DNA of 50,279 bases from Bacteriovoracaceae bacterium. Lineage in GTDB: Bacteria; Bdellovibrionota; Bacteriovoracia; Bacteriovoracales; Bacteriovoracaceae. Shown one piece after another: positions 6,469 to 44,300 of the stretch. Both the position numbers and the translations under genes were made by a program. Location of the stretch: NCBI GenBank assembly GCA_041586955.1, contig JBFGZE010000015.1, positions 1 through 50,279 of the forward strand, written 5' to 3'. The notes beneath the pieces are model-generated. The model worked only from the letters and a program-made list of their open reading frames with translations, was not told the DNA's origin and did no database searches. Within the stretch, counting starts at the first letter, position 1; the number at the start of each line of letters is the position of its first letter.

Positions 6469-8421
6469 GTGGAGACAATCATTACTGACAATATGCCAAA
6501 GTATGAATTAGTTCCTTCTGGCGTTAAAAAAGGCCAAAAAGGTTTTGGAATTACTAAAAGAAGAGTACTTATTGGTAGCTCTCTGGCCTGTGATATCTAT
6601 ATCCCACACTCAAGTGTGAGTGCCATTCATGCTGTTCTTGAAATCTCAAATTATGGGCAGAAAATTTACGATATGAATAGTGAGAAGGGAACCCTTGTTA
6701 ACGGCAAGAAGGTAGTAGTCAACGACATTTCTATTGGAGATGTCATTGGTCTTGGTAACCAAACATTTATATTTAAAGACTTTTCCGAAAAAGAGGTTCT
6801 TCCTCCAGCTCTTAATATGTTGAAGGAGTTGCCAAAAATGGCAAGGCCTACCATGCAAAAGGCAACCACTCAAAAGCATCTTCCACGTGTCGATTACCCC
6901 CTCGCTAAAGACCCTAAGGCCGAATTTAGCGAGTATATTTTTGAAGATGTGGAAACCCTCTATCCTATTTTTGATTATAATATTAACCATGGGGCCATTG
7001 AAATTATTATTTTATTTAACAATAAAATATTTTCAGTTGATTATTTACCCCAGAAAGATGGAATCTATAACCTCGTGGGTGTTAACCGCTCAGGAAGAGA
7101 TTTGGAATTTGCCTATTTAGGCAAAGAAGAAAAATGTCCTTTTGTCGAAGTCAAAGGCGACGACTTATTTATTTTTCCTTTAGATGGTTATGAGTTTTTC
7201 TGTATTGGAGATAAAAAACCTGGGAATGGTGATAACGGTCCTGTTTGCCTATGCGACAACGATATATTTCGCTTCTCCAAAGGTAGCACCCAGATATTTG
7301 TCAGACAAGCATCTGCCCCTCCTAAAGTGGCCCCGGCCCCTATTCTTCGTCGAGATCAAGATTTTAAAAAGTATTTATTTTTAGTTTTAGGGTTTTTGTT
7401 CATTTCACTGGCTGGTTTGTCGGTTTTCGATGTGGATAAAGAAATAGAAAAAGAAAAAGTGCCGGCGCGTATTGCGACTATTCTTTATAAAAAGAAATTG
7501 GTCGTGAATAAAAATCCATCTCCGGATAAAACGAAGAATGCACCTCCTAAGATAAAACAAAAATCACCGAAGCAGGTTAAGACTAAAAAAATAGTGAAAA
7601 ATCAAACAGAGCCTAAACCTAAAAAAACAAATAAGCGAGTGACGGTTAAATCTGGTTCCAAGACCGCCAAAAAAGTCGTGAAATCTAAAAAAGTTGCTCC
7701 CAATAAGGCCTCTGTAACACGAAAAAGTGCAAAAGTTACACCAACCAATAAGAGACCTTCTGGTAAAAAGAATATTGGGCGGTCACAAAGAAAAACTCGA
7801 TCTACTCGCGTTGCTAAGTCCCAAGGTAATGTAGACGTTTATAAGTCGATGGACTTTAAAAGTACGATTAGTAGCTTAATGGCCAAAGGTGGTTCTACGA
7901 AGGGAGTTAAGTCTGTTAAAAATGCTGACTCAAGCACAGGGTTTGGATCAGTTAGTAGTGCAGGTGCTGGGGCAACTTTAAAAACTGCACAAGTCAGTAA
8001 AAATGTCGGCAGTTTCTCTGGAGCCGCGTCAGGCTCTTTAGACACGAGTAAAGGTGTTGAGGGCCTGGTGAGTAAGAAAGGTATTTTTACTGTTGGAATT
8101 CCTGCCAAAACGATCATTCGCGGCGGCATGGACCCAGATGTCATTCGACGTATTCTTATGGAGCATTTACCTCAATTTCAATATTGTTATCAAAAAGCAC
8201 TCGACCGTTCGAGTCGCGCCTTTAGTGGCGTTGTTAAACTAAACTTTCTTATAGGAGCATCTGGCCACGTGACCAAGGCCGGAGCTCGGGGCCCTTCGTT
8301 GCCTTCGAAAGTACGTGGTTGTGTCATCAATGTCCTTCGAGGGATTCGCTTTCCTGAGCCTATGGGCGGAGGTGTTGTGGAAGTTAATCAGCCAATGAGC
8401 TTTTTTCCCAAAGGAAATTAG
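6469..8421 (+). CDS. FHA domain + TM + Lys/Pro-rich linker + TonB-C-like (AgmX/PglI C-terminal) protein, GltG-like
   Basis: FHA-like IGSSLACD...SVSAIHA...DMNSEKGTLVNG; one TM helix; Lys/Pro-rich linker; C-terminal IRRILMEHLPQFQYCY...CVINVLRGIRFPEP. SD aaggag precedes GTG. Confidence 0.8.
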   Translation: METIITDNMPKYELVPSGVKKGQKGFGITKRRVLIGSSLACDIYIPHSSVSAIHAVLEISNYGQKIYDMNSEKGTLVNGKKVVVNDISIGDVIGLGNQTFIFKDFSEKEVLPPALNMLKELPKMARPTMQKATTQKHLPRVDYPLAKDPKAEFSEYIFEDVETLYPIFDYNINHGAIEIIILFNNKIFSVDYLPQKDGIYNLVGVNRSGRDLEFAYLGKEEKCPFVEVKGDDLFIFPLDGYEFFCIGDKKPGNGDNGPVCLCDNDIFRFSKGSTQIFVRQASAPPKVAPAPILRRDQDFKKYLFLVLGFLFISLAGLSVFDVDKEIEKEKVPARIATILYKKKLVVNKNPSPDKTKNAPPKIKQKSPKQVKTKKIVKNQTEPKPKKTNKRVTVKSGSKTAKKVVKSKKVAPNKASVTRKSAKVTPTNKRPSGKKNIGRSQRKTRSTRVAKSQGNVDVYKSMDFKSTISSLMAKGGSTKGVKSVKNADSSTGFGSVSSAGAGATLKTAQVSKNVGSFSGAASGSLDTSKGVEGLVSKKGIFTVGIPAKTIIRGGMDPDVIRRILMEHLPQFQYCYQKALDRSSRAFSGVVKLNFLIGASGHVTKAGARGPSLPSKVRGCVINVLRGIRFPEPMGGGVVEVNQPMSFFPKGN

Positions 8422-8634
8422 ACTTATAATGGTAAGGTGACTGTTTTCCTTTGATCATTATGTGATTGAGGTTTTCAATTATAAAGTTAGCTAATAAGTA
8501 AACAGATTTCACTTTATGAGCACTGGAAGGGGGTGGAGATTAATCTTCAGGACCTCAATGGCCTTCAGAGTGGATAACTTATTAACCTTGCGAATGATCG
8601 GATTGCTTTCTAATTAAGCATTTGTTCATTGATA

Positions 8635-9711
8635 TTAACCAAACTTTAAAGCATCTACTGGGCAAATATCAATACAGCCACCACAACCAATACACAATGT
8701 CGTATCTAGGCCAAACTCGCCCATTATAGGAACTTTGTTCTTATGGGCATACTCTGCAACATCAATGCCCATAGGGCAGGCCTGAGAGCATAGGTTAATG
8801 CCCTTGCATGCATCATTTGCGACAACTTTAAATTTTGACTTTCCGTAACGGCCGATTAGTTCCATCATTTTTGCTAAAGGGCAACCATAGCGACACCAGA
8901 TGCGCGTCCCTAGAAAAGGATAGGCGCCTATTCCAATAAGCGCCCCGAAAAGTAAATCCATCACTAGATCTTGAAAGAGCTTTCCTGCGCTAAGTAAGCT
9001 TGTCGCAGTGACAATTTGCAGAAAATCAAAAAATAAAACCAGTCCATAGGCGAACCCAAAGGCCATAAAAAATAATTGAAGCTTTTCCACTTTTTTGGCG
9101 GTCGCACCAGTCGGAGTTTTATACTTGACCCAATTGGCGCCCCATTTAGTGACACCAATTGTTTCGGCGAGATTCCCACAGGCACAAAACCAGGAGCAAT
9201 AACGTTTACCAAAAAAATAAACGGAAATGGGGACTAAGATAAAGAGATAAATGAATCCTCCCCATGAGGTAAAGCCTTTAGAGATATAAACGTAGGCATC
9301 AGTCTTGGTCATTGAGGTCGCGTCGTAAAAAATATTTTGACCGGTTAGGAGAGGGACAATGAAATAGGGAAGCAGGTAGAAAATAATTAATTGGACAAAA
9401 AATATAGATAAAAATTTATTGCGTTGATAGGAATTGAGTCGAGTTTTCTTACCTTTCCTATAAGGGGATTGATTTCTCCAAAGGACCTGGCCGGCAATTG
9501 TACAAACAATCAATGTATAGAGCGTTGAGTACCAAAAGGAGGGGCTTTTATTTAAAAAATAGACTGTTCTTATGGAATCGAGTAATCCCCAGGATACTAG
9601 GTATTGCGGGTATTTATAGGTGGCATACATGATAATAACAAAAGGGAGAAAGAGATATAAAAATATTGTTTCGCCTGTCGATCTTTTAAGATCTCCTTTT
9701 GCGTAGCTCAT
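8635..9711 (-). CDS. Multi-pass membrane 4Fe-4S binding protein (NapH/RdxA/CcoG-like polyferredoxin)
   Basis: Several TM segments; RYCSWFCACG and RIWCRYGCP motifs; C-terminal CKGINLCSQACP and CIGCGGCIDICP. Confidence 0.8.
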   Translation of the reverse strand: MSYAKGDLKRSTGETIFLYLFLPFVIIMYATYKYPQYLVSWGLLDSIRTVYFLNKSPSFWYSTLYTLIVCTIAGQVLWRNQSPYRKGKKTRLNSYQRNKFLSIFFVQLIIFYLLPYFIVPLLTGQNIFYDATSMTKTDAYVYISKGFTSWGGFIYLFILVPISVYFFGKRYCSWFCACGNLAETIGVTKWGANWVKYKTPTGATAKKVEKLQLFFMAFGFAYGLVLFFDFLQIVTATSLLSAGKLFQDLVMDLLFGALIGIGAYPFLGTRIWCRYGCPLAKMMELIGRYGKSKFKVVANDACKGINLCSQACPMGIDVAEYAHKNKVPIMGEFGLDTTLCIGCGGCIDICPVDALKFG

Positions 9712-9744
9712 AAATTAATTCCTAGAGGGGGGGGATTCTGTCAA

Positions 9745-10260
9745 TTATTGTTCGTCACCTAGGACTACAAATTTATAGGTTTTAAAACCCGCTTCAGCAC
9801 AAGTATACATAACTTTTTTAATCTGACTGTATTTAATGGATTTGTCGATAATCAAGTTAATAATTCCACTGAACTTTTTAGCATGTGGAGACGATTTTTC
9901 AATTTGCTTAATGGTTTGTTTTTTTCGTACCAATTCGTTAAAGAGGGGGATAATTCTCCGTCCAGAGTGGTCATGAAGGCGACCAGAATAAGTTTCTTGT
10001 TGGTATACTTCTTTAGAATCAACCCAAATGGTTTCAGGCGCGACCTGAACAATGATACCTGAAGTATTAAGCTCTCGCGATGCCGATTCAGGCAATTTAA
10101 TTCCTTGTGGAACATTGAGAACAACTCCCGAAGAGTTATAGCTCTTTAAGAGGAAAACGAGGAGAATCACCAGAATATCGAGTAAAGAAGTAATATCAAT
10201 ATCCATGACCTCTTTCTTTACTCTTTTGACTCTATTTCTTATTGAACGGTTTGATCTCAT
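9745..10260 (-). CDS. ExbD/TolR-family protein, AglS-like
   Basis: DITSLLDILVILLVFLLKSY TM segment with the conserved Asp; C-terminal IKKVMYTCAEAGF. Confidence 0.85.
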   Translation of the reverse strand: MRSNRSIRNRVKRVKKEVMDIDITSLLDILVILLVFLLKSYNSSGVVLNVPQGIKLPESASRELNTSGIIVQVAPETIWVDSKEVYQQETYSGRLHDHSGRRIIPLFNELVRKKQTIKQIEKSSPHAKKFSGIINLIIDKSIKYSQIKKVMYTCAEAGFKTYKFVVLGDEQ

Positions 10261-10262
10261 AA

Positions 10263-10793
10263 TTAACTCTGAACGTTTCCAAAAATAATTTTACCAAAAA
10301 TAGTTTCTAATTTTTGATCATTGCCATCTTTATCTCTGAGATAAATGGAGGGATCAGTTTTTCTCATATCTCTAACTGCGTCCATTACTTTTACAATGGT
10401 TTCATAATTAACATTGATCAATGGTTCAAAAATGATGGTGTTTTCATCAAGATGCTGCTTTTTTAATGTAATGAGAAAGTTATGAAGGGCCTCAAGATCA
10501 TAATCACCATTTGCGACTTTTCCAAATGACTTGAAGGCCCGACTTGGAATTCCTCGATAGAGAGTGATCTGTGACTCCGTTATTTTTAAAGTCAACGCTA
10601 ACGGTACCTTTTTCTTTTTAGGTGGGGCCGAATTTGACAATAACGGAATGTCCGACGGGATTTCGTAAATTTTTAGAAAGCTTGCGGACATTAAGAGAAA
10701 GAAAACTAAAATAAAAACCGCGTCCAGGATGGGGACGAGGTTCATTTTTTTATCTCTAGGCCTCGTTCGTCTTTTACTTGGAGGATTTAACAC
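10263..10793 (-). CDS. ExbD/TolR-family protein, AglQ-like
   Basis: NLVPILDAVFILVFFLL TM segment with the conserved Asp; YETIVKVMDAVR motif. Confidence 0.85.
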   Translation of the reverse strand: MLNPPSKRRTRPRDKKMNLVPILDAVFILVFFLLMSASFLKIYEIPSDIPLLSNSAPPKKKKVPLALTLKITESQITLYRGIPSRAFKSFGKVANGDYDLEALHNFLITLKKQHLDENTIIFEPLINVNYETIVKVMDAVRDMRKTDPSIYLRDKDGNDQKLETIFGKIIFGNVQS

Positions 10794-10828
10794 AATTCAC
10801 CTCATAATCTGAGGAAAAGGGGAGTCTA

Positions 10829-11488
10829 CTACTCGCCCTTCTCTCTTTTAGTTCCTAATAAATCCATTAATTTTACCGAAAACTCATCAATCTCATTGAT
10901 GATCTTTTCTGATTTACTACTAAGGAATGTATGAAGCATTAAAATGGTAATCGCCGCTAAGAGCCCTAGAAAAGTTGTATTCATCGCCAGGGAAATACCT
11001 TTGGCAAGAATCTCTTGCTTTTGAGCAGGGTCCGCTTCAGCAACAGCAGAGAATGATTGAATCAGACCTTGGATAGTACCAAGTAAACCAAATAGCGTAG
11101 AAATATTTGCGATCATTTGGAGATAATTAAGTCGTAATTCAACTTTTGGGATGACTTCTAATGCTGTCGCGTCTATTGCATTTTGAATTTGGTTAACGGA
11201 GGATGTTGACCTCTTTAGTCCCGATTTTAATACCTTTGGCAATGCTGCGATTGAACCTGAGCAGACTCGGATCGCCCCTTGGATATCATTAGATAGGATA
11301 TACCTTTGCAGCTCGTTCATAAAAGAAGGTCCATCGACATCCATTTTGAATGAAAGCTTAATGAAGCGCTCTAAAGCGATTGCTAAACCGATTCCCCAAA
11401 TGATGACAATTACCCACATGAATACACCACCGCCCTGGATAAAATCGGCGATTGTATTAACTGATGCTGTGGCCGCTGTTCCTTCCAT
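10829..11488 (-). CDS. MotA/TolQ/ExbB proton-channel protein, AglR-like
   Basis: GGVFMWVI...IALERF, TLFGLLGTIQGLIQSF and GISLAMNTTFLGL motifs. Confidence 0.92.
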   Translation of the reverse strand: MEGTAATASVNTIADFIQGGGVFMWVIVIIWGIGLAIALERFIKLSFKMDVDGPSFMNELQRYILSNDIQGAIRVCSGSIAALPKVLKSGLKRSTSSVNQIQNAIDATALEVIPKVELRLNYLQMIANISTLFGLLGTIQGLIQSFSAVAEADPAQKQEILAKGISLAMNTTFLGLLAAITILMLHTFLSSKSEKIINEIDEFSVKLMDLLGTKREKGE

Positions 11489-11586
11489 GGAAAACTTCTC
11501 CTTTTAAATTATTGATATAACTAAAATAATTATACCAAAGAAAAAGGACTCCAGTGGATCAGGCCATAAAGGCAGGAACATTCTGC

Positions 11587-20325: not shown

Positions 20326-21114
20326 ATGAAATTAAGAGACATCATACTGGCGGTATTCATTTACCTCATGCCGGTTCACATTATCTATGCCTATTCATAC
20401 ACCGATGATTTCAATCTCGGATTTTATTGGAGGTCAATTCCTGTCAATGTCAAAAACTTTGTCATTACAGATAGTGAAGGAGAACTTTTGGCGGGTCTGG
20501 TAAGAGAATCGATTAATGAATGGGAAGAATCTGTTGGTAAAGACTTATGGAATATTCATGAAGACTATATAATTTCTGAAAACTATTCAGGTAATTATAT
20601 CCGGTGGTCAAATAATTTTGCCGAAGATACGGGTTATGATCCCAGCTATACCCTCGCTATAACAACTCGCTACTCAGTGGGTCCTTATATCTCACGTACT
20701 GAAATTATATTAAATGGTGAACTAATTTATCTCAGACAAAATGATGGAGATATTTTAAAGAAAACGATCCTCCACGAATTGGGGCATACATTAGGCCTGG
20801 GTCATTCTGAAGAGGACTCTATTATGCGTTCTTATATTTCTTCAACTAACTCTCTTCAAGAAGATGATATTTATGGTATGTCTCAATTGCTGCAAGAAAC
20901 TGAGCGCCGTGTATCAACAGGTTATATTTCTCAGCATGCTTATATTGAGGAAGAATCTAATGCGGCAAAATTTGCCGGCTGCGGTACCATTCAAAACCCC
21001 AGTGGCGGTGGAGGAGGTGGTGGACATGGGCCTTCCTTTTTGCTTGGTTTGATCGGGGTTTCATTCGCTATGAGAAGATCTTCAAAGGAGAATTTTTCCT
21101 CTGTGAATCTCTAG
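20326..21114 (+). CDS. Matrixin (M10-like metzincin) metalloprotease with C-terminal membrane anchor
   Basis: HELGHTLGLGH zinc motif, Met-turn SIMR, LQEDDIYGM; C-terminal GCG, poly-Gly, hydrophobic stretch, RR. Confidence 0.88.
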   Translation: MKLRDIILAVFIYLMPVHIIYAYSYTDDFNLGFYWRSIPVNVKNFVITDSEGELLAGLVRESINEWEESVGKDLWNIHEDYIISENYSGNYIRWSNNFAEDTGYDPSYTLAITTRYSVGPYISRTEIILNGELIYLRQNDGDILKKTILHELGHTLGLGHSEEDSIMRSYISSTNSLQEDDIYGMSQLLQETERRVSTGYISQHAYIEEESNAAKFAGCGTIQNPSGGGGGGGHGPSFLLGLIGVSFAMRRSSKENFSSVNL

Positions 21115-31729: not shown

Positions 31730-33070
31730 ATGAAGTTGTTTTTATTGGGCCTGGTTTTGTTTCAATGTGTGGTTTCACTTGATGTGAGTGCCAGTGATAT
31801 TTCTTTAGGTTCTAATAAACTTGATGTTAAATTGACTCAATTGCAATGTGAAACTGTTGCTCAGTTAAGAAGTTCTCCCGAATTGGGAAAAGATAACCAG
31901 ATTGGTCATATTGATTGTAAGACAAAAGATTATCGCTCATCTCATCTTCTCATTTTGGATGAAACACCGGATATGTATAAAATATTCCACGATGGCCGTG
32001 TGGGGTGGATTGCTAAATCGATAACAATAAAACCAAAAATCGACCCAACAAAAGCTGGTAATCGATTTGAAAAAATAGCATCTGGTTCTTTGAATTGCCA
32101 CACTCGTCTCAATATCCGTCGAGAACCAGGAATGAATTATAAAATCAAAGGTAAGATTCCCTGCCGGTCAAAAAGTGGAAAAAGGACAAAGATTTCAGTC
32201 CTTGGTCACGACTCCAATTCTGGTTGGTATTATGTTAATTACGGTAATACCAAAGGTTGGGTGAGCAGTAATTTCGTCGAGGTGGAAAGTGAAGATCTCT
32301 TAAATTCTGTAAAAGTTGTACGAGAGGCCTTTAAGGGAATTAAAAACACTGGCCGCTTAGGAATTTTTTGTGGCCAAGGATTAGATGATAATACCTCTTG
32401 CATGATTGTTGACCATTCTTTTTTTCAAAATAAAACCTCTGCCAAAAAAATTGCCGAAGAGATGCAGGCCGCAGATCGTCATAGTAAGCAAGAAAAGAAG
32501 AGAAAGTTTAAAGAATTATTTGGCCCGATCGCTGTTCATATTCAAACTTTGACAGGCTGGCCGGCCTCCGTAACTTTATCCCAGATGGCGCTTGAGACCA
32601 ATTGGGGTACTTCAAATGTTTTTAAGAGGCTTAATAATTTTGGAGGACATTCTTGCACCAGAATGAATATTAATGCTAGAAGGGAAGTGCGTAATATTAG
32701 TTTAAAGCGATACCTTAGAACAAACCCCCATTCAATGGGATCGATCATTAAAGAAAAGAATCGAGTTTTTTTAAAGACTCCCTGTACCTACCCTCGGCCT
32801 AAAAATGAGGGGTATTTTTACCGATCATTTGAATCTGTTTTAGACGCAGCTTATCTTTATGCTGATAATGTTTTGGCCAATTCGGCCTATAAAAATGCTC
32901 AGGGTTATATTGCTGCCGCCCATAAAAAGGGACAGCGACCAGATCCCTATGAAGTGATTAGAGGTCTAGGGGCCTATGCCGCAGATAAAAACTATCGAAC
33001 AAAGTTAAAAAACATTATGAAAGCGAATGATTTTGGAACGTATAATAATGTAAAGGAGTGTGGAAAATGA
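31730..33070 (+). CDS. Secreted SH3b-domain + GH73 glucosaminidase (FlgJ-like) peptidoglycan hydrolase
   Basis: Signal peptide; LNIRREPG...WYYVNYGNTKGWVSSNFV (SH3b); SQMALETNWG, NNFGG, YAADKNY (GH73 YATD-like). Confidence 0.85.
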   Translation: MKLFLLGLVLFQCVVSLDVSASDISLGSNKLDVKLTQLQCETVAQLRSSPELGKDNQIGHIDCKTKDYRSSHLLILDETPDMYKIFHDGRVGWIAKSITIKPKIDPTKAGNRFEKIASGSLNCHTRLNIRREPGMNYKIKGKIPCRSKSGKRTKISVLGHDSNSGWYYVNYGNTKGWVSSNFVEVESEDLLNSVKVVREAFKGIKNTGRLGIFCGQGLDDNTSCMIVDHSFFQNKTSAKKIAEEMQAADRHSKQEKKRKFKELFGPIAVHIQTLTGWPASVTLSQMALETNWGTSNVFKRLNNFGGHSCTRMNINARREVRNISLKRYLRTNPHSMGSIIKEKNRVFLKTPCTYPRPKNEGYFYRSFESVLDAAYLYADNVLANSAYKNAQGYIAAAHKKGQRPDPYEVIRGLGAYAADKNYRTKLKNIMKANDFGTYNNVKECGK

Positions 33071-33693
33071 AAAGAACCACTATGTATTATATTCAACTTT
33101 TAATGCTACCTACACTTTTACTATTCCCACTAAATGCTCAGGATTTATGCTCCTTGGAAGTGATATCCGCTTTAGAGCTTGGTGGTGCGGAAGTTATTTC
33201 ATGTGAAACTTTTCACAAGAAAAAAAAGAAAACGACAGAAATGATTGCGGCATTACTTATTTATCCTGATTCAAATAATGAAGTAAGAAATGCCACATTT
33301 TCTATTTATCGATTTCATAAAAAGAAAAAAGATAAGTTAGAACTTCTTTATCTTAAATCTAACCTTGGCGAAACCTTTTTACCTTTTAAATATCACGGCA
33401 CAGACACAATCTTTACCATCGCTGATGTTAATCAAGATGGCGCTATTGATTTTCTTTTTATGTATGATGACTTTAGTACGACGCGATTAAATATTTTAAC
33501 CATCGATACGAAGAAGAAATCTCTTGTTCCCATTGGATTTTTTACAGTGTACGAAAAGAAATTGGAATTCTATCCATTTTTTACGGGACATCTGGGCAAG
33601 GACGTAGAAGTTTTACCGGGGGCCATCAAAACTCACGGTAAAGAGGGGATTCGCAATTTTAAGTTGGATGGCCTTCATTTCCGTGAGGATTAA
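33067..33693 (+). CDS. Secreted hypothetical protein with DxNxDG Ca-binding-like motif
   Basis: ATGA overlap with the hydrolase stop; signal peptide; DVNQDGAID. Confidence 0.7.
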   Translation: MKRTTMYYIQLLMLPTLLLFPLNAQDLCSLEVISALELGGAEVISCETFHKKKKKTTEMIAALLIYPDSNNEVRNATFSIYRFHKKKKDKLELLYLKSNLGETFLPFKYHGTDTIFTIADVNQDGAIDFLFMYDDFSTTRLNILTIDTKKKSLVPIGFFTVYEKKLEFYPFFTGHLGKDVEVLPGAIKTHGKEGIRNFKLDGLHFRED

Positions 33694-33694
33694 T

Positions 33695-34756
33695 TTATAT
33701 CTTAATTAATTTTAAATCTACCGTTTTGAGCTTGCCATGGCGCTCATAGGTGACCTTGACTTTATCACCGATTTTATAATTTTCTAGAGTATTATAAATA
33801 TCGTCAAAGGAATTAATATCATACTTATCAATTTTTAAAATAATATCCCCGATATAATAACGGCCATATTGGTCGCGTGACATGCCCTCAAGCCCAGCTT
33901 TGGCCGCAGGACTATCTTGGGGAATATATTTTATAATAATTCCCTTTTTAATGCCGAAATGAGCTTTTACATATTCTTCAGCAACTGTAATTCCAAGACC
34001 CGGACGAGTGATTTTTCCATGTTTTATTAATTGAGGCACCATCGATTTGATGGTGTTGATCGGTACAGCAAAGCCAATTCCCGCACTCGAGCCAGAGTGA
34101 CTAAAAATCATGGTATTCATACCGATTACTTCACCTTTTGAATTAAAAAGAGGCCCACCAGAGTTTCCAGGGTTAATCGCACAATCTGTTTGAATCATGC
34201 CGTGGATCTTTACTCCTCCAATACCTTTAATCTTTCTCTCTAGCGCTGAAATAATACCTTGAGTAATGGTTTGGTCAAGGCCAAAAGGGTTGCCAATGGC
34301 CAGGGCCTTTTGACCAACCATTAGATTCGTAGAGCTACCGATCGTGACCGGCTTTAAATTCTTAGGAAGCTTTTCTAATTTGAGAACGGCAATATCTTTA
34401 GCAGGGACAACCCCGACTAACTTCGCCGGATATTGTGTTTTATCATTTTTAAAGGAGATGAGAAATGAATCGCCACCTTGGATGACATGAAAATTAGTAA
34501 TAATATGACCTTTATTATCCCAAACTAACCCCGATCCAGTGCCGGAAGGTACTTCCATAATGTCGAAATCAAAAAACCATCCCGTTTTCGCTAATTTAAA
34601 ATTGGAAACGTTGACCACTGAGGCGCCATTTTCTCGGTAAATATCAATGGTATTTTGTTCATTTTGTAATAGGCTGGCCTTCTCATCACCGAATAGGGCG
34701 AAGTGATTAAGGGATAGAAAACTAAGGATTAGTATTAGAATGAATTTGAACTTCAT
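33695..34756 (-). CDS. HtrA/DegP-like trypsin serine protease with one PDZ domain
   Basis: GSG...ITNFHVI, DIAVLK, AINPGNSGGPL triad; PDZ SPAAKAGL...GDII. Confidence 0.95.
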   Translation of the reverse strand: MKFKFILILILSFLSLNHFALFGDEKASLLQNEQNTIDIYRENGASVVNVSNFKLAKTGWFFDFDIMEVPSGTGSGLVWDNKGHIITNFHVIQGGDSFLISFKNDKTQYPAKLVGVVPAKDIAVLKLEKLPKNLKPVTIGSSTNLMVGQKALAIGNPFGLDQTITQGIISALERKIKGIGGVKIHGMIQTDCAINPGNSGGPLFNSKGEVIGMNTMIFSHSGSSAGIGFAVPINTIKSMVPQLIKHGKITRPGLGITVAEEYVKAHFGIKKGIIIKYIPQDSPAAKAGLEGMSRDQYGRYYIGDIILKIDKYDINSFDDIYNTLENYKIGDKVKVTYERHGKLKTVDLKLIKI

Positions 34757-36656: not shown

Positions 36657-36683
36657 CTAATGCTTTTCAAAAGGAGAAGTATT

Positions 36684-37019
36684 ATGGGACTGCAAAATGC
36701 CGTTTTGAATGAATTTTATGAAATCTATAATCAACCATCTTATCGTGAAATTGCCAATATCACAGGTATCCAATTTACTCGTGTTTTTCGTCTTTATAAT
36801 GGCAATGCCATGAAGGTGCAGGAATATGAAGTATTTAAGAAAAAAATTGAGTCGAAAAATGGTAAATCCTTAGAGAATTGGGAATCTCTTATTCATGATT
36901 CCCTAACTATTTTAAGTCGAGATTTTTTACAAGAGCTCGAATCAATACTAAAAAGAAAGATCCGTGTTGCTCAATTGCAGAATAAATTAAAAGGGGGTGA
37001 AGTATGTGTAGCTTCTTAA
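36684..37019 (+). CDS. Hypothetical protein with N-terminal HTH-like motif
   Basis: PSYREIANITGIQFTRVFRLYNG. SD aaggag supports ATG 36684 rather than 36660. Confidence 0.7.
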   Translation: MGLQNAVLNEFYEIYNQPSYREIANITGIQFTRVFRLYNGNAMKVQEYEVFKKKIESKNGKSLENWESLIHDSLTILSRDFLQELESILKRKIRVAQLQNKLKGGEVCVAS

Positions 37020-37495
37020 TGGTGGAACGAATGGTCATCGAGTCCTTAGAAAAAAAACCTCGATCTTTAGAACAATTGATGGATGATACTGGGCTTGATT
37101 ATGAACTGGCCAAGGCCGTTTTATTTGAACTGACGAGCGAAGGATATATTTATTTTAAGAAAGGTGTGTATGTCTTAAATCGCGAAAAAATAGTTAATAA
37201 TAGCACCGATAATTCACTGGCCCGACAGGAAGAAATTGATGAGATTTTTTCATCTTTTGCACGGCAGGATAAAAAAGAGCAAGAAACCTTTTTAAAAGTA
37301 GATAAGATCTATCTTGATGATGATGAAACAAAATTATTATGGGCGATGCTTAAGGGAATAGAATCGTATATTTCAAATATTCGACAAGATCGCAAAAGAC
37401 ACCCCATTAATGAGAAAACTAGTAAGAAAAAGGTCATCTTCTTAGGGGTCTCTCCCTACGAAAACCTTGTGAAAGAAACACTAAGGGCGGTATAG
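37004..37495 (+). CDS. Hypothetical protein with N-terminal winged-helix-like motif
   Basis: RSLEQLMDDTGLDYELAKAVLFELTSEGYIYFKKGVY; overlaps the upstream ORF. Confidence 0.7.
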   Translation: MCSFLMVERMVIESLEKKPRSLEQLMDDTGLDYELAKAVLFELTSEGYIYFKKGVYVLNREKIVNNSTDNSLARQEEIDEIFSSFARQDKKEQETFLKVDKIYLDDDETKLLWAMLKGIESYISNIRQDRKRHPINEKTSKKKVIFLGVSPYENLVKETLRAV

Positions 37496-37502
37496 TAGAG
37501 GA

Positions 37503-38594
37503 ATGAGAATTCCTATTATTATTATGGGTGGGGGAGTCTTGGGACTCCTCACTGCTCTAGCGATTAAAAAGCAACACCCTGGTTTAGACTTGGCACTCTT
37601 TGATCAAAATCCTTTTTGGGGCGAAGGGGCCACAAGTCGCAATTCGGGCGTTCTCCACGCTGGAATTTATTATCCTCATCAATCACTTAAGCATTCTCTT
37701 TGCATGGCCGGAAATGAATTGTGGCGCTCATTAGCGAGTGAATTTGAAATACCAATCCTTGAGTGTGGTAAATATATCATTGCTAGCACTAAAGATGATA
37801 TTAAAGGTTGGGAAAAGACATTTTCCCAGGGAATAAAAAATGGAGTCACCGGCCTTCGCGAAGTTTCAGTCGATGAAGTTCAAAAGCTCAAGCAATATGC
37901 TCATATTGAAAAAGCATTTTTTTCACCGAATACGGCAGTTCTTGATACTTCCGTTGCGATTCAAAACATAGCACGCTATCTCCATAATAAAGATATCCCC
38001 TTAATGCTCAATAATAAGGTGCTGGATATTCAAAAAATAAATGACGGGTTTCAAGTGAAGACCGAGCATGAAACCTTAGAATGTGATTTCCTGATTAATT
38101 TGGCCGGCGCTCATGCACCAGATCTCCGATCTCAGTTATTGCCAACTTCTAATATTGAAAGTTATTGGGTTAAAGGCCATTATTTAAAATTGGCCCGACC
38201 TTTTTACAATGAATCACTTATATACCCAGTTCCCAATAAGGATTTAAAAGGGCTTGGTGTTCATACCAGTTTTGGTTTTGATCGCCAGGTTCGTTTTGGT
38301 CCCAATGTTGAGGATACCACTGATTACGACTATCAAATGAATACGAGAGTCATTGATCAAATGTTTCCAGCGATTGAGAAAATTTTTAAAGGTATTGAGA
38401 AAAAGGATCTGCAATTAGATTATTGTGGAATACGTTCAAAAATAAAAATAAACGGCGAGCTTTATCCTGACTTTTGGATCAAAAATGGAAAGGAATGGGG
38501 AATGCCAGGATATTTTGAAGCGTTGGGCATAGAGTCTCCTGGCCTAACTGCCTCTCCTGCAATTGCTAATTTGCTTGCAAGTTGGGTTGAATAG
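37503..38594 (+). CDS. FAD-dependent oxidoreductase, L-2-hydroxyglutarate oxidase (LhgO)-like
   Basis: GGGVLG, TSRNSGVLHAGIYY, LIYPVP, GLGVH, GIESPGLTASPAIA. Confidence 0.9.
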   Translation: MRIPIIIMGGGVLGLLTALAIKKQHPGLDLALFDQNPFWGEGATSRNSGVLHAGIYYPHQSLKHSLCMAGNELWRSLASEFEIPILECGKYIIASTKDDIKGWEKTFSQGIKNGVTGLREVSVDEVQKLKQYAHIEKAFFSPNTAVLDTSVAIQNIARYLHNKDIPLMLNNKVLDIQKINDGFQVKTEHETLECDFLINLAGAHAPDLRSQLLPTSNIESYWVKGHYLKLARPFYNESLIYPVPNKDLKGLGVHTSFGFDRQVRFGPNVEDTTDYDYQMNTRVIDQMFPAIEKIFKGIEKKDLQLDYCGIRSKIKINGELYPDFWIKNGKEWGMPGYFEALGIESPGLTASPAIANLLASWVE

Positions 38595-38599
38595 CGTTG

Positions 38600-38785
38600 A
38601 CCCGATTAGAGTCATCCAAATTTCACAATTTTCTTGTATCACAACTGGAGCATCATTAGTTCCTGAATCGATTCCTCGAAAAAGATTAACCTCGTCAACT
38701 TCCAGCTTAACCAAGTCCAATCTATCCTTAATTATTCTTATGCCTTCAACAAAGTACATATTATCTTTTATAAATCGCTCTTCAT
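38600..38785 (-). pseudogene. Decayed immunity-protein-like gene (DUF2489-like)
   Basis: FVEGIRII...LFRGIDSGTNDAPV. Restoring one base near 38641 continues G-DTRKL-[TGA 38623-25]-NLD, matching a 'GIDSETDxxPxGxxRxLW' pattern. Confidence 0.5.
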
Positions 38786-39212
38786 TTAACCACAATATCG
38801 CTTAAACGGATTTTTATATTTTTAAGTTGGTTTTCGAGGGTCCATTGAGTAGGTTTCTTGTCGTCCTCAAACCATTTTGTCCCCTCTTCAATCCATTCTG
38901 TTAAATATCCTTGGAATGAAATGCCATTGGATGTTCCAGGTTTATCAGCATTTCCAGCACTGTCAATTTTATTTAGTGCAAATTTGCTATCTCCATAAAA
39001 GTGTTTTTAAGATGCTTCCCTGTCAGTCCCCATTTTGAATTGGTTGATGGTAAAAGTTTGACTAACCTTTTCTTTGAGTTAATTCCTAACTTCCGTGCGG
39101 AGTGGGTTATTTCTTGTAACTCCTTCCCCTCATGGGAAACTGTCGCAAATGTGGTGCTTGAGATAAGAGTGAAGAGGATGATTGGGAGGATAATTTCTAA
39201 AAGTCGCTTCAT
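38782..39212 (-). pseudogene. Orphan/frameshifted polymorphic toxin module with signal peptide
   Basis: ATG 1 nt after the CPCC stop; signal peptide; SARKLGINSK resembles SAAKLGLKAK of the upstream toxin. One extra A in the A5 tract (39004-39008) gives KHLKKHFYGDSKFALNKID..., open to TGA at 38782. Confidence 0.6.
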
Positions 39213-39213
39213 T

Positions 39214-39426
39214 TTATGGCGTTGCTTTTCCACGTTTTTTGAAATTTATCCGTGCCTGATTTAATGATGGGTCGTTAGCACCTCCTTCAAAATCAGGATC
39301 ATCAAATTGAACAGAGTCATCCTCCCAACCACAAACCTCACATATTTCATAAGAGCCGGGAAAGTTTTCCTTAGTGAATGAATTTGTTCCACATACAGGA
39401 CATGGTACTAAATCAATATTGCTCAT
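39214..39426 (-). CDS. CPCC-family cysteine-rich protein, probable immunity protein
   Basis: CPVCG...YEICEVCGWEDDSVQ...GGAN..SLNQAR.NF (Cys_rich_CPCC pattern). Starts 1 nt after the toxin stop. Confidence 0.88.
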   Translation of the reverse strand: MSNIDLVPCPVCGTNSFTKENFPGSYEICEVCGWEDDSVQFDDPDFEGGANDPSLNQARINFKKRGKATP

Positions 39427-39427
39427 A

Positions 39428-41152
39428 TTACAGTCCTTCCTTTTTAATCAATCTGTCCCAATACCCTTGCCCAGACTTTGGCCTGAACATAGTTTTAGGT
39501 AATCCATTCTTCGTTTTAACTCCAAAAATATTTGTCTTAGGATTATAAAGTAACTGTTCACCATTTGGTCTCATCTTAGAAATAGTGCCAGAAGGAGGAT
39601 TCGTAAAAAAACTTTTCGCTTTTTCCACATATTCTTTTGCATTGTTTAATTCTGGAAATGTCTTGCCATGTTTCTTCCAATGACTAAAGGCATTTTCTAC
39701 TCCATTGAACTTAGGTCCCTTTGTCCAAACTTCGCTCTTACTAAGGTTTCCAATGGAACCAGTATTGTCCAATATCCTGGAAGAGAACTTCGCAAAATCA
39801 GCTATTTCAGACTTCGCTTTTAATCCTAACTTCGCTGCGGAAGAGGCGGCACTCTTAATAAAACCAGAGTGCTTTACAACCTTGACCAGGCCTGATGCTC
39901 CTCCTGGAATAGCAGGTAAAATCGCAGCAACAGTATCGGCTCCAACTCCAAGAACGTCTAAGACTTTTTCATAGAGAAGAGTATTGTTATTCCATTTTGA
40001 AATACTGTCAATCCCCATGCCTAGTGACGCCAAGTCAATCGCCGATTCAAAATAAGCGGGAGATCTATTACTATTTTGAATAAGAAGCTCTGCCAAAACT
40101 CTGGTAGCGTTTTCGACATTAATTTCTCTTCCCTCAGTTATATGCTCTAATATCGGAATGAGTGCTTTTGGAGTATTGGAAGAAATTTTTCCATCTGAAA
40201 GTAAAGCTTTGATCCCGGCATAAAGATAGAAGTTCGCTTCAAATAAGGTGAGAGCTTTTACATCTCCAAGTCCTGCTTTTTTGGAAAGGGCAAGGCTTGA
40301 ATAAAAACTGAACCAGGCGAGGTCTAGGATAATTTCTTTTTGTTCATCGTTTTGAATAAGGTCGTGATCGAGAGTGTTTTCTTCCAATCTAAGCCTTAGC
40401 TTTTTTAAATCTTCAAAATAGAGATTAAATTCATTTTTAAATTGTTCAGCGAGGTTAAACGTTTGATTATGCCATTTTTGGTATTCAGGATCGTGGCGGT
40501 TTCCAGCATAAATATTGCCATCTGAATCCACTCCCCCTGATAGATTAATATTACATTTCGTCTCTTCTTCGATCTGGTTGGCCAACCAGCAAAGGCCATT
40601 TGAGCTCCATTTAAAAGGCGCTTCCAGCATTTTTTCAAGGATTTTATAGGAACCGCTCTCCTCAAGTTTTTTATTACCATAGGCAAAGGCATTTCCAAGT
40701 TTTTTCACCCCTCTTCCAATACTTTGTCCTGACTTTTTGGCCACGCATAGCGAGTATCCTACTGGGCGCGCGAGAGTTTTAATCTTTTGGAGTTCCTCTT
40801 TATATTGCGTTGATAATTCCCTTTTAATCTCATCTTTAAACCGTTTTTCCTTAATCTCTTGATAGATCGTTTTTGTACATTGGTACTGGACATCGGCCCA
40901 CGCCCATAAAATTTTCCAAGGCTTTTTCTTTATTTTTTGCTTAACTCTTTTGAGGCAAGTAGAGGTAATATTCACGGGTTTTTTAATGGTAACCCAATAG
41001 GCAGTTTTAATAGGAGTTTCAATGGTGACTTCGTAGGGCACTTTGACAAAGTCGATAACGAATTTCTTTTTCAAAGGGTAGTGCTTCTCACAAGATTCAT
41101 CTGCGAAAATCGCTGACGATAAAAGGATAATGCTTAAAATTATTCGTATCAT
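39428..41152 (-). CDS. Secreted polymorphic toxin with C-terminal nuclease-like tip
   Basis: Signal peptide from ATG 41152 (SD ggag); pre-toxin-like hydrophobic helices; C-terminal NAFSHWKKHG.TFPE...YVEKAKSF...YNPKTNIFG...TMFRP...YW, as in Rhs/CdiA-type tips; immunity-like gene follows. Confidence 0.78.
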   Translation of the reverse strand: MIRIILSIILLSSAIFADESCEKHYPLKKKFVIDFVKVPYEVTIETPIKTAYWVTIKKPVNITSTCLKRVKQKIKKKPWKILWAWADVQYQCTKTIYQEIKEKRFKDEIKRELSTQYKEELQKIKTLARPVGYSLCVAKKSGQSIGRGVKKLGNAFAYGNKKLEESGSYKILEKMLEAPFKWSSNGLCWLANQIEEETKCNINLSGGVDSDGNIYAGNRHDPEYQKWHNQTFNLAEQFKNEFNLYFEDLKKLRLRLEENTLDHDLIQNDEQKEIILDLAWFSFYSSLALSKKAGLGDVKALTLFEANFYLYAGIKALLSDGKISSNTPKALIPILEHITEGREINVENATRVLAELLIQNSNRSPAYFESAIDLASLGMGIDSISKWNNNTLLYEKVLDVLGVGADTVAAILPAIPGGASGLVKVVKHSGFIKSAASSAAKLGLKAKSEIADFAKFSSRILDNTGSIGNLSKSEVWTKGPKFNGVENAFSHWKKHGKTFPELNNAKEYVEKAKSFFTNPPSGTISKMRPNGEQLLYNPKTNIFGVKTKNGLPKTMFRPKSGQGYWDRLIKKEGL

Positions 41153-41326
41153 CGAATGTTCTCCCAACGGACGTTTCATTTTTTACGGGAAAAGAAGTAT
41201 CGAAAAACAGAATTTATTTAAAGTAAAATGAACGATTTTCCTCTTAGGCCAATATGAGGAGGGATATTATTAGCGAACTGTGGCAATTAAGTTACTATTT
41301 TTATTACTCTTAATCTGAAATAGCTA

Positions 41327-41356
41327 AAGCTAAGAGAGAGAGATTTCTCTTAGCTT
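41327..41356 (-). terminator. Inverted repeat, probable terminator of metF-metH
   Basis: aagctaagaga-N8-tctcttagctt, a perfect 11-bp stem about 20 bp after the metH stop. Confidence 0.65.
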
Positions 41357-41377
41357 GATGAAGGTATTTTGAACTTT

Positions 41378-44300
41378 TTATAAATTAGGGGCCAACCAAC
41401 GTCTGACTTCATCAACCTCCATGCCCTTTCTTTTGGCATAATCTTCAATTTGGTCAACATCAATCTTACCCAGGTTAAAGTATTTTGAATCAGGGTATTG
41501 CATATAATAACCGGAGACTGAGCTCGCTGGGTACATGGCATAATTCTCAGTTAAGACAGCGCCAATATTTTCTTCAACTTTGAGCAGATCCCAAATCACT
41601 CTTTTCTCAGTGTGGTCTGGGCAGGAAGGGTAACCAGGAGCAGGCCTAACACCACGGTATTTTTCCTTGATTAGGTCTTCTCGAGTCAAGTTTTCGTCTT
41701 TTCCAAAGCCCCAAGAGTCGCGGACTTTTTTGTGAAGGAGCTCAGCAAAAGCTTCGGCCAAGCGGTCACCGATGGCCTTAACGAGAATAGAATTATAATC
41801 ATCAAGCTCATCTTCAAAGGTCTTGGCAAATTTTTCGACCTCATCTCCCATGGTCACGACAAATGCGCCACTGAAGTCTTGATAACCTTTAGGTGCCACA
41901 AAATCACAGAGGCTGCGCAAGGGTCTGTCAGCGTCTTTTTCTTTTTGCTGGCGCAAGAAAGAAAATTGGCAGAGCTTTTCTTGGCGTTGTTCATCTTTAT
42001 AGAGAATGACATCATCGCCATGATTATTGGCCGGCCATAAACCAAAAACGGCCTTGGGTCTAAATTTTTTCTCTTTGATAATGAGTGCTAACATATTCTT
42101 TGCATCTTCAAAGAGAGATTTTGCCTGTTCACTATATTTTGGGTTTTCAAGGATTGCGGGAAATGTTCCCTTGAGTTCCCAGGTCCAGAAGAAGGGGGAC
42201 CAATCGATAAAATCAGCGATTTCCTCAAGTTCGACTTGATCCCAAACTTGGAGACCGATTTTTTCAGGGGTATGCAATTGGATTTGTTCCCAATCAATTT
42301 GTGGGGCCTTTTTTCTGGCCACATCAATAGGAGTAAAGGGAATGTTACTCTCTCCGCTATTAAAAGATTGCCTGAGAGACTCTTGTTTCGCCAAAAGCTC
42401 TCGAACATATTGCTCTTTTCTATTTTTATCTTCTGTAAGAAGGTTATTACATACCTCTACCACTAGAGAAGCGTCGCCAACTTGAACGATGGGTTGGTCA
42501 TAAGCGGGAGAGATTTTAATCGCCGTATGGGCCTTAGAGGTCGTTGCGCCGCCAACGAGAAGAGGTGTGGTGAATCCCTGCTTCTTCATTTCGCTAGCAT
42601 TAAAAATCATTTCATCAAGTGAAGGAGTGATAAGGCCACTCATGCCAATGATATTGGCATTTTCCTTTTTGGCGGTTCTAAGGATTTCTTCACAGGAAAC
42701 CATGACTCCTAGGTCAATCACCCTATAGCCATTGCAGGAAAGCACGACTGAAACAATATTTTTACCAATATCGTGAACATCGCCTTTTACTGTGGCGATG
42801 ACAAATGTCTTTTGAGAAGAGATATTTTTGCTTTTCTTTTCGGCGTCCATATAGGGTTCAAGGAAAGCAACCGCCTTTTTCATGACCCGTGCCGATTTCA
42901 CGACTTGAGGTAAAAACATCTTACCAGCGCCGAATAATTCTCCAACCACTTTCATGCCATCCATGAGTGGGCCCTCAATAACGGCAAGGGGAATTTTCAA
43001 TTCTTTAAAGGCCTCTTCAGTATCCTTTTCGATAAAATCGACAATACCTTGGACCAGGGCATGAGTAATACGCTCGCCTAATGGTTTTTCTCGCCATTCA
43101 AGATTATTGCGGTCTTTTTTCTTATTTTGACCTTTAAATTGTTCCGCGAAGTCAATCAGATTTTCTGTTGCCTCAGGACTTCTATTAAGAAGGACATCCT
43201 CTACCTTTTCTTTAAGTTCCGGTTTAATGTCTTCATATATCTCAAGCATACCGGCGTTAACAATTCCCATATCCAGACCTGCCTGGATCGCGTGATAGAG
43301 AAAGGCCGAATGCATCGCTTCGCGCACAACATTATTTCCTCTAAAGGAAAAGGAGATATTACTGACACCGCCAGAAGTGAGAGCGCCTGGGCATTCTTTT
43401 TTGATTTGGCGGACAGCTTCGATAAAGTCGACAGCATAATTATTATGCTCATCCATTCCCGTCGCCACTGTTAGAATATTGGGATCAAAGATAATATCGC
43501 GGGGGTCAATTTCAACTTGGTTGACCAAGATATCATAGGCCCTTTTGCAAATACGGACCTTGTCGGCCATTTCGGCAGCTTGCCCCTTTTCATCAAATGC
43601 CATCACTACCACGGCAGCACCATAGTTTTTAATGAGCTGCGCCTGTTTGATAAAATTTTCCTCTCCCTCTTTAAGAGAGATGGAGTTAACGATAGATTTT
43701 CCCTGAAGGCATTTGAGTCCGGCCTCAATCACTTCCCATTTTGACGAATCGATCATGATAGGAACTTTGCAGATGTCTGGCTCTGATGCCACAAGATGTA
43801 AAAACTTGGTCATGCAGGCAATGCCATCAATCAAGGCCTCATCAAAATTGATATCGATGATATTTGCGCCATTTTCAACTTGTTGGCGGGCGACCTTGAG
43901 GGCCTCTTCGTAGTTATTCTCTTTAATAAGGCGGGCAAATTTAGGGCTACCGGTAACGTTGGTTCTTTCACCAACCATTAAAAATTGGGTTAAACGCTCT
44001 TCCGTAATATTAAGAGCTTCCAGGCCTGAGAGGCGAGTTACTGGGGAAAGTGATGGAATGGAGCGAGGGGTCAGGTCTTTTAATTCCATATAAATGGCAT
44101 TGATATGATCGGGGGTCGTTCCACAGCAACCACCTACCATATTGACGTAACCTTCTTTCGCGAACTCCGACATAAAATTAGCGGTAATATTTGGCGTTTC
44201 ATCATAGCCCGTGGCGGCCAGGGGATTAGGCAGGCCGGCATTAGGGTAACAACTGGTATAACAATCAGAAACACGGGCAAGCTCGGCCATAAAAGGGCGC

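Follow-up and report, generated by a model that had tools for sequence, protein, structure and literature searches.

The operon described here lies on the minus strand of a 50,279-nucleotide (nt) stretch of contig JBFGZE010000015.1 from a Bacteriovoracaceae bacterium (assembly GCA_041586955.1), the whole of which is referred to below as the window. It probably encodes a Sec-exported polymorphic toxin with a colicin D-like RNase tip, together with a CPCC protein that would provide immunity to it. The tip and the CPCC protein form a pair whose family has already been solved structurally, and of which the pair in the window is a new member. The carrier of the tip is composite. The segment immediately upstream of the tip is shared with Rhs/Tc-type toxins, and the N-terminal domain (N-domain) and the helical middle are new families, the sole truly undescribed parts of the carrier.

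The operon consists of the toxin gene, the CPCC gene and a third gene, orfA, arranged with spacers of 1 nt: a single base separates the toxin stop codon TAA from the ATG of the CPCC gene, and a single base separates the CPCC stop codon from the ATG of orfA at 39212. The toxin open reading frame (ORF) can be read from two ATG codons. All toxin residue numbers given below follow the longer, 583-amino-acid (aa) form. The second ATG, at 41152, is the likelier start, because the sequence GGGAG is found 7 nt 5' of it and because the protein collection holds the toxin in its 574-aa form (P0002). Read from this codon, the precursor begins with MIRIILSIILLSSAIFA followed by DESC, with predicted cleavage before D27. 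This N-terminus has the short basic n-region, the hydrophobic core and the small-residue cleavage site of a Sec-type signal peptide, and no lipobox was read in its sequence. Equivalent hydrophobic leaders are aligned upstream of the first conserved cysteine in the relatives of the N-domain. A first-pass annotation of this DNA had pointed to the signal peptide, to particular strings of the protein (CLKRVKQKIKKKPWKILWAWADVQYQC, toxin residues 75-101, and HWKKHGKTFPE...YNPKTNIFG...TMFRP, within residues 500-567) and to a CPCC gene starting 1 nt further on. All of these are borne out by the ORF, by the sequence and by the Pfam family PF14206.

The toxin tip and its immunity protein

The products of two adjacent genes match the two chains of one solved complex. 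Tip residues 492-576 align with PDB chain 8ey4_A over chain residues 3-87 of 88 (phmmer E 2.2e-30). This 88-aa chain is named 'PT-VENN domain-containing protein' and belongs to an entry released on 2023-11-08 under the title 'Contact-dependent growth inhibition toxin-immunity protein complex from E. coli O32:H37'. The CPCC protein matches the partner chain 8ey4_I (E 2.7e-19) and also 8ey3_A (E 6.3e-19), both named 'Cys_rich_CPCC domain-containing protein', and it is a clear member of the Pfam family PF14206 Cys_rich_CPCC (E 1.1e-21, 76.9 bits for a cut-off of 24.5). Its cysteines 9, 12, 29 and 32 form the pairs CPVC and CEVC, which align with those of the solved chains, and the protein is predicted to be zinc-ribbon-like. 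With both chains of 8EY4 matched in this way, the CPCC gene is, by homology, the immunity gene of the toxin, and by the same homology its product would be expected to bind the tip. Literature searches on 8EY4 and on CPCC proteins as immunity proteins gave no relevant paper in the library covered. CPCC proteins are widespread, and toxin immunity would provide a function for one of them outside the contact-dependent growth inhibition (CDI) of enterobacteria.

The tip was modelled with AlphaFold2 (AF2) on a 15-sequence alignment (predicted local distance difference test, pLDDT, of 88.3), and the order of helices and strands in the model is H-H-E-E-E-E-H. A Foldseek search of the PDB with this model returned six matches at E <= 0.001. 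The first is again 8ey4_A (E 1.9e-12, TMt 0.92, root-mean-square deviation of 0.7 over 83 columns, 58% identity). The other five are colicin D tRNase chains, namely 1v74_A, 1tfo_A, 1tfk_A, 5znm_A and 5znm_B (E 2.4e-4 to 8.9e-4, prob 1.00, TMq 0.47-0.51). Weaker matches at E ~0.4 were obtained with RelE, HigB and another CdiA tip. The alignment of the tips (n=15) contains the invariant residues N496, A497, H500, H504, F508, Y517, P529 and R537, followed by N539, G540, F552, G559, T563, F565 and P567.

The Barnase-EndoU-ColicinE5/D-RelE (BECR) fold is presented by Zhang et al. 2012 (PMC3482391) as a fold of metal-independent RNases with a basic residue or His towards the N-terminus and a Ser/Thr in the fourth strand. 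The Ntox35 clade of this fold is described there by two N-terminal His, an 'H, KH' motif and a Ser/Thr in the C-terminal strand, a description that the HWKKH...T of the tip fits. The BECR active-site pattern set out in the same paper is likewise compatible with the tip family, in which a pair of His near the N-terminus and a Thr of the final strand do not vary. The tip combines K502-K503 with H500, H504, R537 and T563, in a register unlike the KK..H..D pattern given in PMC3482391. The Pfam model of Ntox35 did not match the tip, and neither did any other Pfam family at E <= 10. On balance, the modelled fold favours a colicin D-like RNase, probably a tRNase. Colicin D cuts the anticodon loops of tRNA-Arg.

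The same tip is found at the end of very different proteins. A search for longer proteins gave tip matches in 4 of 51 candidates, where the tip stands at the end of P0004, an Rhs protein of 1785 aa, and of three CdiA-type proteins of 2518-2681 aa with two-partner secretion (TPS)/haemagglutinin features (P0005-P0007). The search for shorter proteins gave tip matches in 11 of 14 candidates, including PT-HINT fragments and fragments named filamentous hemagglutinin or RHS repeat-associated. One of these shorter proteins, P0047 (138 aa, 72% identical), contains the same junction sequence as the toxin. Since it recurs at the ends of Rhs, CdiA and PT-HINT proteins, the tip is therefore a polymorphic cargo. 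The locus had been annotated at first pass as a polymorphic toxin with the CPCC gene as its immunity gene; the first assignment is upheld by this recurrence and the second by the match to both chains of 8EY4. The nuclease-type activity that had also been proposed is rendered plausible by the colicin D tRNase-like fold of the model.

A composite carrier

Searched whole and in three pieces against Pfam and NCBIfam, the toxin gave no above-threshold match, only sub-threshold noise; RHS, haemagglutinin, PAAR, VgrG, LXG and HINT domains were all without a match in these two collections. An exhaustive protein search with toxin residues 1-490 returned 54 matches at E <= 0.001. The N-domain is present in six of them (P0008, P0009, P0010, P0012, P0014 and P0030), is also found in P0003, and amounts overall to some eight or nine other proteins when the ORF of a related locus described below is counted. 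The domain has an isoelectric point of 9.7, with 29 Lys and Arg for 14 Asp and Glu, and its conserved cysteines are C30, C75, C101 and C145. An alignment of eight sequences reveals a leader, the motif C-E-x-K-Y-P-P, a beta-like segment punctuated by prolines and the motif KKKPWK. Past residue ~150, the relatives part into at least five unrelated C-terminal continuations, the divergence being complete between the window protein, P0008, P0014, P0003/P0009, P0010/P0030 and P0012. No Pfam family was found in the N-domain relatives. The N-domain itself was without a match in Pfam, NCBIfam, the PDB, Foldseek (PDB and viral libraries) and the ESM Atlas. The profile of its alignment reached at best E 0.07 against the PDB, and the ESM Atlas search with residues 28-190 gave no usable match.

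A scan with a four-sequence alignment of the N-domain, covering 185,579 species with one genome each, identified a single locus (L001), in the metagenome-assembled genome (MAG) of an uncultured Bacteriovorax sp., at 49% identity. This locus occupies 7965-11575 on the plus strand. At 7965-9092 it encodes the N-domain in a 375-aa protein that lacks a toxin tip, and 6 nt downstream begins the gene of a 663-aa protein with a signal peptide (9099-11090), the junction SAQKLGL and a RES-like tip whose Pfam score is sub-threshold (E 3.2e-4, 21.2 bits for a cut-off of 23.2). A 160-aa ORF comes after the 663-aa protein. The N-domain is fused to the toxin in the window and adjacent to it in L001, which suggests that the N-domain and the toxin part work together.

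In the AF2 model of residues 28-490 (463 aa), the N-domain taken alone is moderately confident (pLDDT 72-89). It is modelled as two 36-residue strands (37-72 and 102-137) with a helical cap between them and pairs of cysteines at both ends. Residues 37-72 are amphipathic, with a family-averaged hydrophobic periodicity of 1.32 at 180 degrees, compared with 0.17 at the helical angle of 100 degrees, a value that supports a beta structure. The model was built on about nine sequences, and the alignments of the N-domain are shallow. The domain is probably disulfide-bonded and, by analogy with MafB-N, its role may be surface anchoring or trafficking. If it acts in export or targeting, this could account for the way in which polymorphic toxins that depend on Sec only leave Gram-negative cells and arrive at their targets.

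Rather than a passive anchor, the N-domain could be a self-sufficient export or insertion device, which would represent a new delivery principle. Through its long amphipathic beta segments it would form an oligomeric barrel or fibre, by which the C-terminal toxin would be taken through the outer membrane of the producer or into the envelope of the target. The beta periodicity of residues 37-72 and the two modelled 36-residue strands with their cap and with four cysteines at the ends of the ribbon would suit such a device, as would the lack of a transporter gene nearby and the separate N-domain of L001, encoded beside a toxin that does not carry it. However, the model rests on these few sequences and the periodicity of its second strand is helix-like. 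An amphipathic sheet could also pack on helices in a soluble domain, and the domain is very basic and charged, unlike a membrane barrel. In addition, P0011, orfA and P0045 carry the toxin part with a signal peptide only. This function is considered quite improbable. It is also improbable that the N-domain, either alone or together with the helical middle, serves the Bdellovibrionota as a new delivery device in the form of a disulfide-stapled, oligomerising beta-ribbon reaching across the outer membrane of the predator or onto the envelope of the prey. If this were true, Rhs-type cargo such as this tRNase-like tip could enter prey cells or rivals independently of the machine of a type V, type VI or type VII secretion system (T5SS, T6SS, T7SS), and the split arrangement in the Bacteriovorax MAG would correspond to an N-domain device acting in trans.

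The helical middle has a distribution of its own. The match of P0011 extends over query residues 193-436 (E 3e-16); this protein has no N-domain, and a signal peptide is all that precedes its middle. The tblastn span of P0012 corresponds to window positions 41101-39896.

The segment preceding the tip is marked by the motif Y.ESAIDLASLGMG...W...K.LDV.GVG.D..A..P.IPGG, followed by S447-A-A-K-L-G452 and by a linker ending at W485. This is the pre-toxin module, and 47 of the 54 matches of the search have their best stretch within residues 339-489. A domain scan was made on 21 relatives, 13 of which belong to these 47 module matches. RHS repeats were found in five of the 13, and TcdB_toxin_midN in three, namely two of the RHS-repeat bearers and one further protein. 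The domains following the module in the 13 proteins are Tox-REase-7, HNH, colicin/pyocin DNase and colicin D, to which is added one TNT match at 22.8 bits, below the cut-off of 27. Among 28 module bearers, one TNT domain (E 4.2e-21) and one AHH domain were identified. In short relatives, the module starts directly after the end of the Rhs core, for instance in P0016, where NPLSNLDPSGH is immediately followed by YVESAIDLASLGMG, and likewise in the A5 consensus. When the module profile was compared with the PDB, solved Rhs/Tc cores were matched up to profile positions 278-299 and the module itself was not. Sequence comparison thus identifies the module as a putative pre-toxin element, widespread and without a name of its own, known in Rhs/Tc-type toxins; no dedicated model for it was found in Pfam. 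Its role would be in entry into the target. Its presence in the window toxin would mean that the module found after Rhs cores also works outside Rhs shells.

The family Ntox10 (PF15520) was matched by 17 of the 28 module bearers at E <= 1, with a best E of 1.2e-7. Five of the six bearers listed for this comparison score 11.8-22.8 bits for a cut-off of 26.8, and P0032 reaches E 7.5e-7. The six cover the N-terminal part of the 193-position Ntox10 model, at positions 3-98 in five of them and 20-139 in P0022. As a side observation, the first 80-100 positions of this model appear to describe the general pre-toxin module located after Rhs cores (P0016, P0024, P0032 and others) and not a toxin domain. 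PT-TG is not among the 25 families listed for the 28 bearers. Searching the ESM Atlas with residues 360-484 gave weak leads (0.86-0.90) to PT-TG (0.89, with few shared features), MafB (0.86), Ntox50 and EndoU.

The first-pass annotation had regarded the entire delivery region as unfamiliar. Its statement that Rhs/YD, haemagglutinin, PAAR, VgrG, LXG and Hint domains are lacking agrees with the Pfam and NCBIfam results. The findings on the N-terminus that it had named as contrary to its reading did not turn up: known delivery domains gave no match (Pfam, NCBIfam, PDB, Foldseek and Atlas), and the homologues vary in their C-termini, with at least five unrelated continuations. The unfamiliarity of the whole had to be abandoned: about a quarter of the region (367-484) is the pre-toxin module of many Rhs/Tc-type toxins.

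Junction, second cassette and genomic setting

The S..KLG junction is invariant in seven of seven proteins: the window toxin, orfA, the L001 toxin, P0013, P0045, P0047 and P0008. After the junction, these proteins diverge to different tips 25-35 residues on. In P0013, the same junction is followed by a true Colicin_D domain. In local blastp comparisons, the orfA product is 57% identical to the start of P0045 over 53 aa and 41% identical to P0047 over 46 aa. P0045 is built like orfA, with the signal peptide directly before the junction.

The features of the operon and of its downstream part are collected in Table 1. The orfA frame breaks off soon after an A5 run (39004-39008), and the 74-codon frame that overlaps its end would join it if the A-run had one more A. 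In shuffles of these 463 nt, two stop-free runs of at least 74 codons occurred in 2 of 5000 cases and at least one such run in 219 of 5000. The region is interpreted as another toxin cassette, in short form and with a candidate immunity gene, which has either undergone a frameshift or been sequenced wrongly. Spare cassettes of this kind are usual at polymorphic toxin loci.

Table 1. Features of the toxin operon and of the putative second cassette (window positions; residues in the 583-aa numbering)
Feature	Positions	Strand	Remarks
Toxin ORF	39428..41179	minus	583 aa from first ATG; stop codon counted within the coordinates
Sec-type signal peptide, residues 10-26	41102..41152	minus	MIRIILSIILLSSAIFA; read from sequence
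N-domain, residues ~27-152	40724..41101	minus	rare four-Cys basic family
Helical middle, residues 193-366	40082..40603	minus	shared with P0011 and P0012; predicted helical, low confidence
Pre-toxin module and junction, residues 367-484	39728..40081	minus	shared with Rhs/Tc-type toxins
Toxin tip, residues 485-583	39431..39727	minus	colicin D-like (BECR) alpha-alpha-beta4-alpha fold, as modelled
CPCC gene, 70 aa	39214..39426	minus	Pfam PF14206
orfA, 79 aa as it stands	38973..39212	minus	signal peptide, then THSARKLGI junction
Stop-free frame, 74 codons	38782..39006	minus	overlaps the end of orfA; likely continuation of the second tip
Candidate immunity ORF, 83 aa, TTG start	38544..38795	minus	overlaps the stop of the 38782-39006 frame; candidate by position only

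The toxin gene could itself be a leftover, in which a transferred Rhs/CdiA C-terminus, accompanied by its immunity gene, became joined by accident to a secreted protein already present and which no longer encodes a delivered toxin. The pre-toxin module and the tip are typical of Rhs/CdiA C-termini, the downstream cassette looks frameshifted and delivery machinery is lacking, as would be expected from such a relic. Nevertheless, the ORF is intact over 583 codons and keeps all the invariant residues of the tip, the immunity gene is likewise undamaged and is coupled to it in translation, and the base composition is unremarkable. Moreover, independent sequences combine the N-domain, the middle, the module and the junction in other ways, an indication that the modules are under selection. 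A decayed fusion of this kind is considered very improbable.

The operon is flanked by metH/MTHFR genes and by a FAD-dependent oxidoreductase gene on the opposite strand. The 50-kb window is otherwise ordinary chromosome, containing polA, groEL, genes for signal peptidase I, ExbB/ExbD, a TonB-dependent receptor and ABC transporters, and O-antigen genes. The GC content of the locus, 0.38-0.39, is like that of the rest of the window. Scanned for promoters and terminators, the stretch 38300-41500 gave no more of these elements than its shuffles did. A perfect inverted repeat, AAGCTAAGAGAG ... CTCTCTTAGCTT, is located at 41327-41356 on the minus strand, ~20 nt after the metH stop codon and ~150 nt before the toxin gene, and looks like a hairpin between two transcription units. 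It is missing from the terminator scan because it has no T-run. Elsewhere in the window, secreted-hydrolase-type genes are found at 31730-34756 and 20326-21114, coding for a glucosaminidase with SH3, a trypsin-like protease with PDZ and a matrixin-like M10 peptidase. Such genes suit an organism that degrades other cells and are not specific to one. Finally, two ORFs (119 and 163 aa) that overlap each other and have no Pfam match occupy 36660-37495 on the plus strand, between an exo/endonuclease-phosphatase gene and the FAD oxidoreductase gene.

Proposed mode of action and relation to known systems

A mode of action can be proposed for the operon. The 574-aa precursor would be exported by Sec with removal of its signal peptide, the N-domain would fold with two disulfides outside the cytoplasm, and the mature toxin would be released or displayed at the surface. 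Upon contact with a target cell, the C-terminal part would enter with the help of the pre-toxin module. In the cytoplasm of the target bacterium, the tip would most likely cut RNA, probably tRNA, and translation would stop. The producer would be protected by the co-translated CPCC protein, binding the tip 1:1 as in 8EY4. The second cassette would serve as a spare or alternative toxin, able to swap tips by recombination at the junction. The targets may be related strains, other bacteria or prey.

The last kind of target has to be considered in the light of the lineage. According to its label, the N-domain relative P0010 derives from the MAG of an Oligoflexia bacterium, and Bacteriovorax and Oligoflexia both belong to the Bdellovibrionota; the N-domain may be specific to one lineage. 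The toxin could be a predation effector, and not a weapon aimed at kin or competitors, released in the periplasm of the prey, from where only the prey inner membrane would have to be crossed via the pre-toxin module. The translation of the prey would be shut down, and the immunity protein would guard the cytoplasm of the producer before export. Barstar likewise protects the cytoplasm of the producer from barnase. Both taxon-labelled N-domain relatives are Bdellovibrionota, and the signal peptide and the probable disulfides indicate an extracytoplasmic life, as this proposal requires. No receptor-binding or injection machinery was found in the toxin or nearby. Speculatively, if the organism is a periplasmic predator, a toxin set free inside the prey periplasm would need an inner-membrane step only, which would fit the absence of these parts. 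If the toxin does act on prey, translation shut-off by an RNase would add to the known tools of predators. However, not all Bdellovibrionota are periplasmic predators. Furthermore, according to PMC3482391, polymorphic tips together with a spare cassette and matching immunity genes are the usual sign of a conflict between related strains. A literature search on polymorphic toxins in Bdellovibrio-like predators, judged by titles and abstract openings, found no such toxin reported among the papers listed. A role in predation is on the whole unlikely.

Several observations weigh against the preferred reading of the locus as a polymorphic toxin operon dependent on Sec export, in which an RNase tip resembling colicin D is paired with a CPCC immunity protein. 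Concerning the tip, Pfam Colicin_D does not match it even at E <= 10, and the hhalign comparison of the tip family with the Colicin_D-bearing protein P0013 is not significant (probability 0.6%). The link of the modelled tip to colicin D is structural only, with TM-scores of ~0.5. Concerning the carrier, the pre-toxin segment of the window toxin has no match of its own to Ntox10 or PT-TG (PF14449) at E <= 10. The AF2 model of residues 28-490 is poor, with a mean pLDDT of 54. Foldseek returned 0 matches for this model at E <= 0.001 in the PDB and the viral library, a result that says little on the middle and pre-toxin parts because of the quality of the model. The 'strand' 102-137 of the N-domain is not backed by the periodicity, which peaks at 105 degrees and is helix-like there. 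Since the periodicity backs residues 37-72 and not residues 102-137, the fold of the N-domain is uncertain. Taxon labels are few, being available for two of the nine other N-domain proteins, both from Bdellovibrionota; the remainder are unlabelled metagenome proteins. Concerning export, no T5SS, T6SS or T7SS component was identified by Pfam among the 39 other large ORFs of the window, and a route across the outer membrane of the producer is not evident in the window. Concerning the second cassette, the 74-codon frame and the 83-aa ORF have no Pfam match, the cassette read through with an X at the break shows no relation to the profile of the first tip, and its frameshift could be a sequencing error.

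The locus constitutes a compact and testable case, in which a solved tip/immunity pair is found on a carrier without a secretion marker, together with a spare cassette and a recombination junction. It can be compared with four known systems. The tip and the CPCC protein are homologous to both chains of the CdiA-CT/CdiI complex of E. coli O32:H37 (8EY4; 8EY3 for the immunity protein alone). In that system, the tip ends a CdiA protein exported by a two-partner system, whereas the window toxin has neither TPS nor haemagglutinin repeats nor a PT-VENN match, and no cdiB neighbour was found among the 39 neighbouring ORFs. With Rhs/Tc-type (TccC-like) toxins, the window toxin shares the pre-toxin module located after the Rhs core, and the same tip ends the Rhs protein P0004. 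Unlike them, it is devoid of YD/RHS repeats, of a TEN_YD-shell and of the core cleavage motif. The toxin is neither a CdiA nor an Rhs protein, because the defining domains of both were tested and are absent. Pfam also gave no match in the toxin to the T6SS and T7SS cargo markers PAAR, VgrG, MIX, LXG and WXG.

The tRNase domain of colicin D (1V74, 1TFO, 1TFK, 5ZNM; PF11429; 'Tox-ColD') resembles the modelled tip in its helices followed by a four-stranded sheet. A basic/His motif in the first helix and a Ser/Thr in the last strand agree with the BECR active-site description of PMC3482391. In contrast, membership is not found at the sequence level, and the predicted immunity protein of the window is a CPCC zinc ribbon and not ImmD.

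Polymorphic toxins dependent on Sec and the type II secretion system, with lineage-restricted N-domains such as MafB-N in Neisseria, Microscilla-N and APD1/APD2, were described in 2012, and surface anchoring or homotypic clustering was proposed for these domains (Zhang et al. 2012, PMC3482391). The first-pass proposal of an undescribed class of toxin carrier does not stand as regards the class, the MafB-like design being known from this work and the 8EY4 pair being solved; it stands for the N-domain and the helical middle. As the class is outlined in the same source, the window toxin shares with it a signal peptide, a constant globular domain, variable C-terminal toxins, adjacent immunity genes and spare cassettes, and differs from it in an unrelated N-domain and a different lineage. 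MafB proper has MafB-N/DUF1020 and an upstream mafA, whereas the window toxin has no Pfam match to MafB and its upstream gene is metH. Overall, the toxin has the features of the MafB-like, Sec-dependent class without being a MafB.

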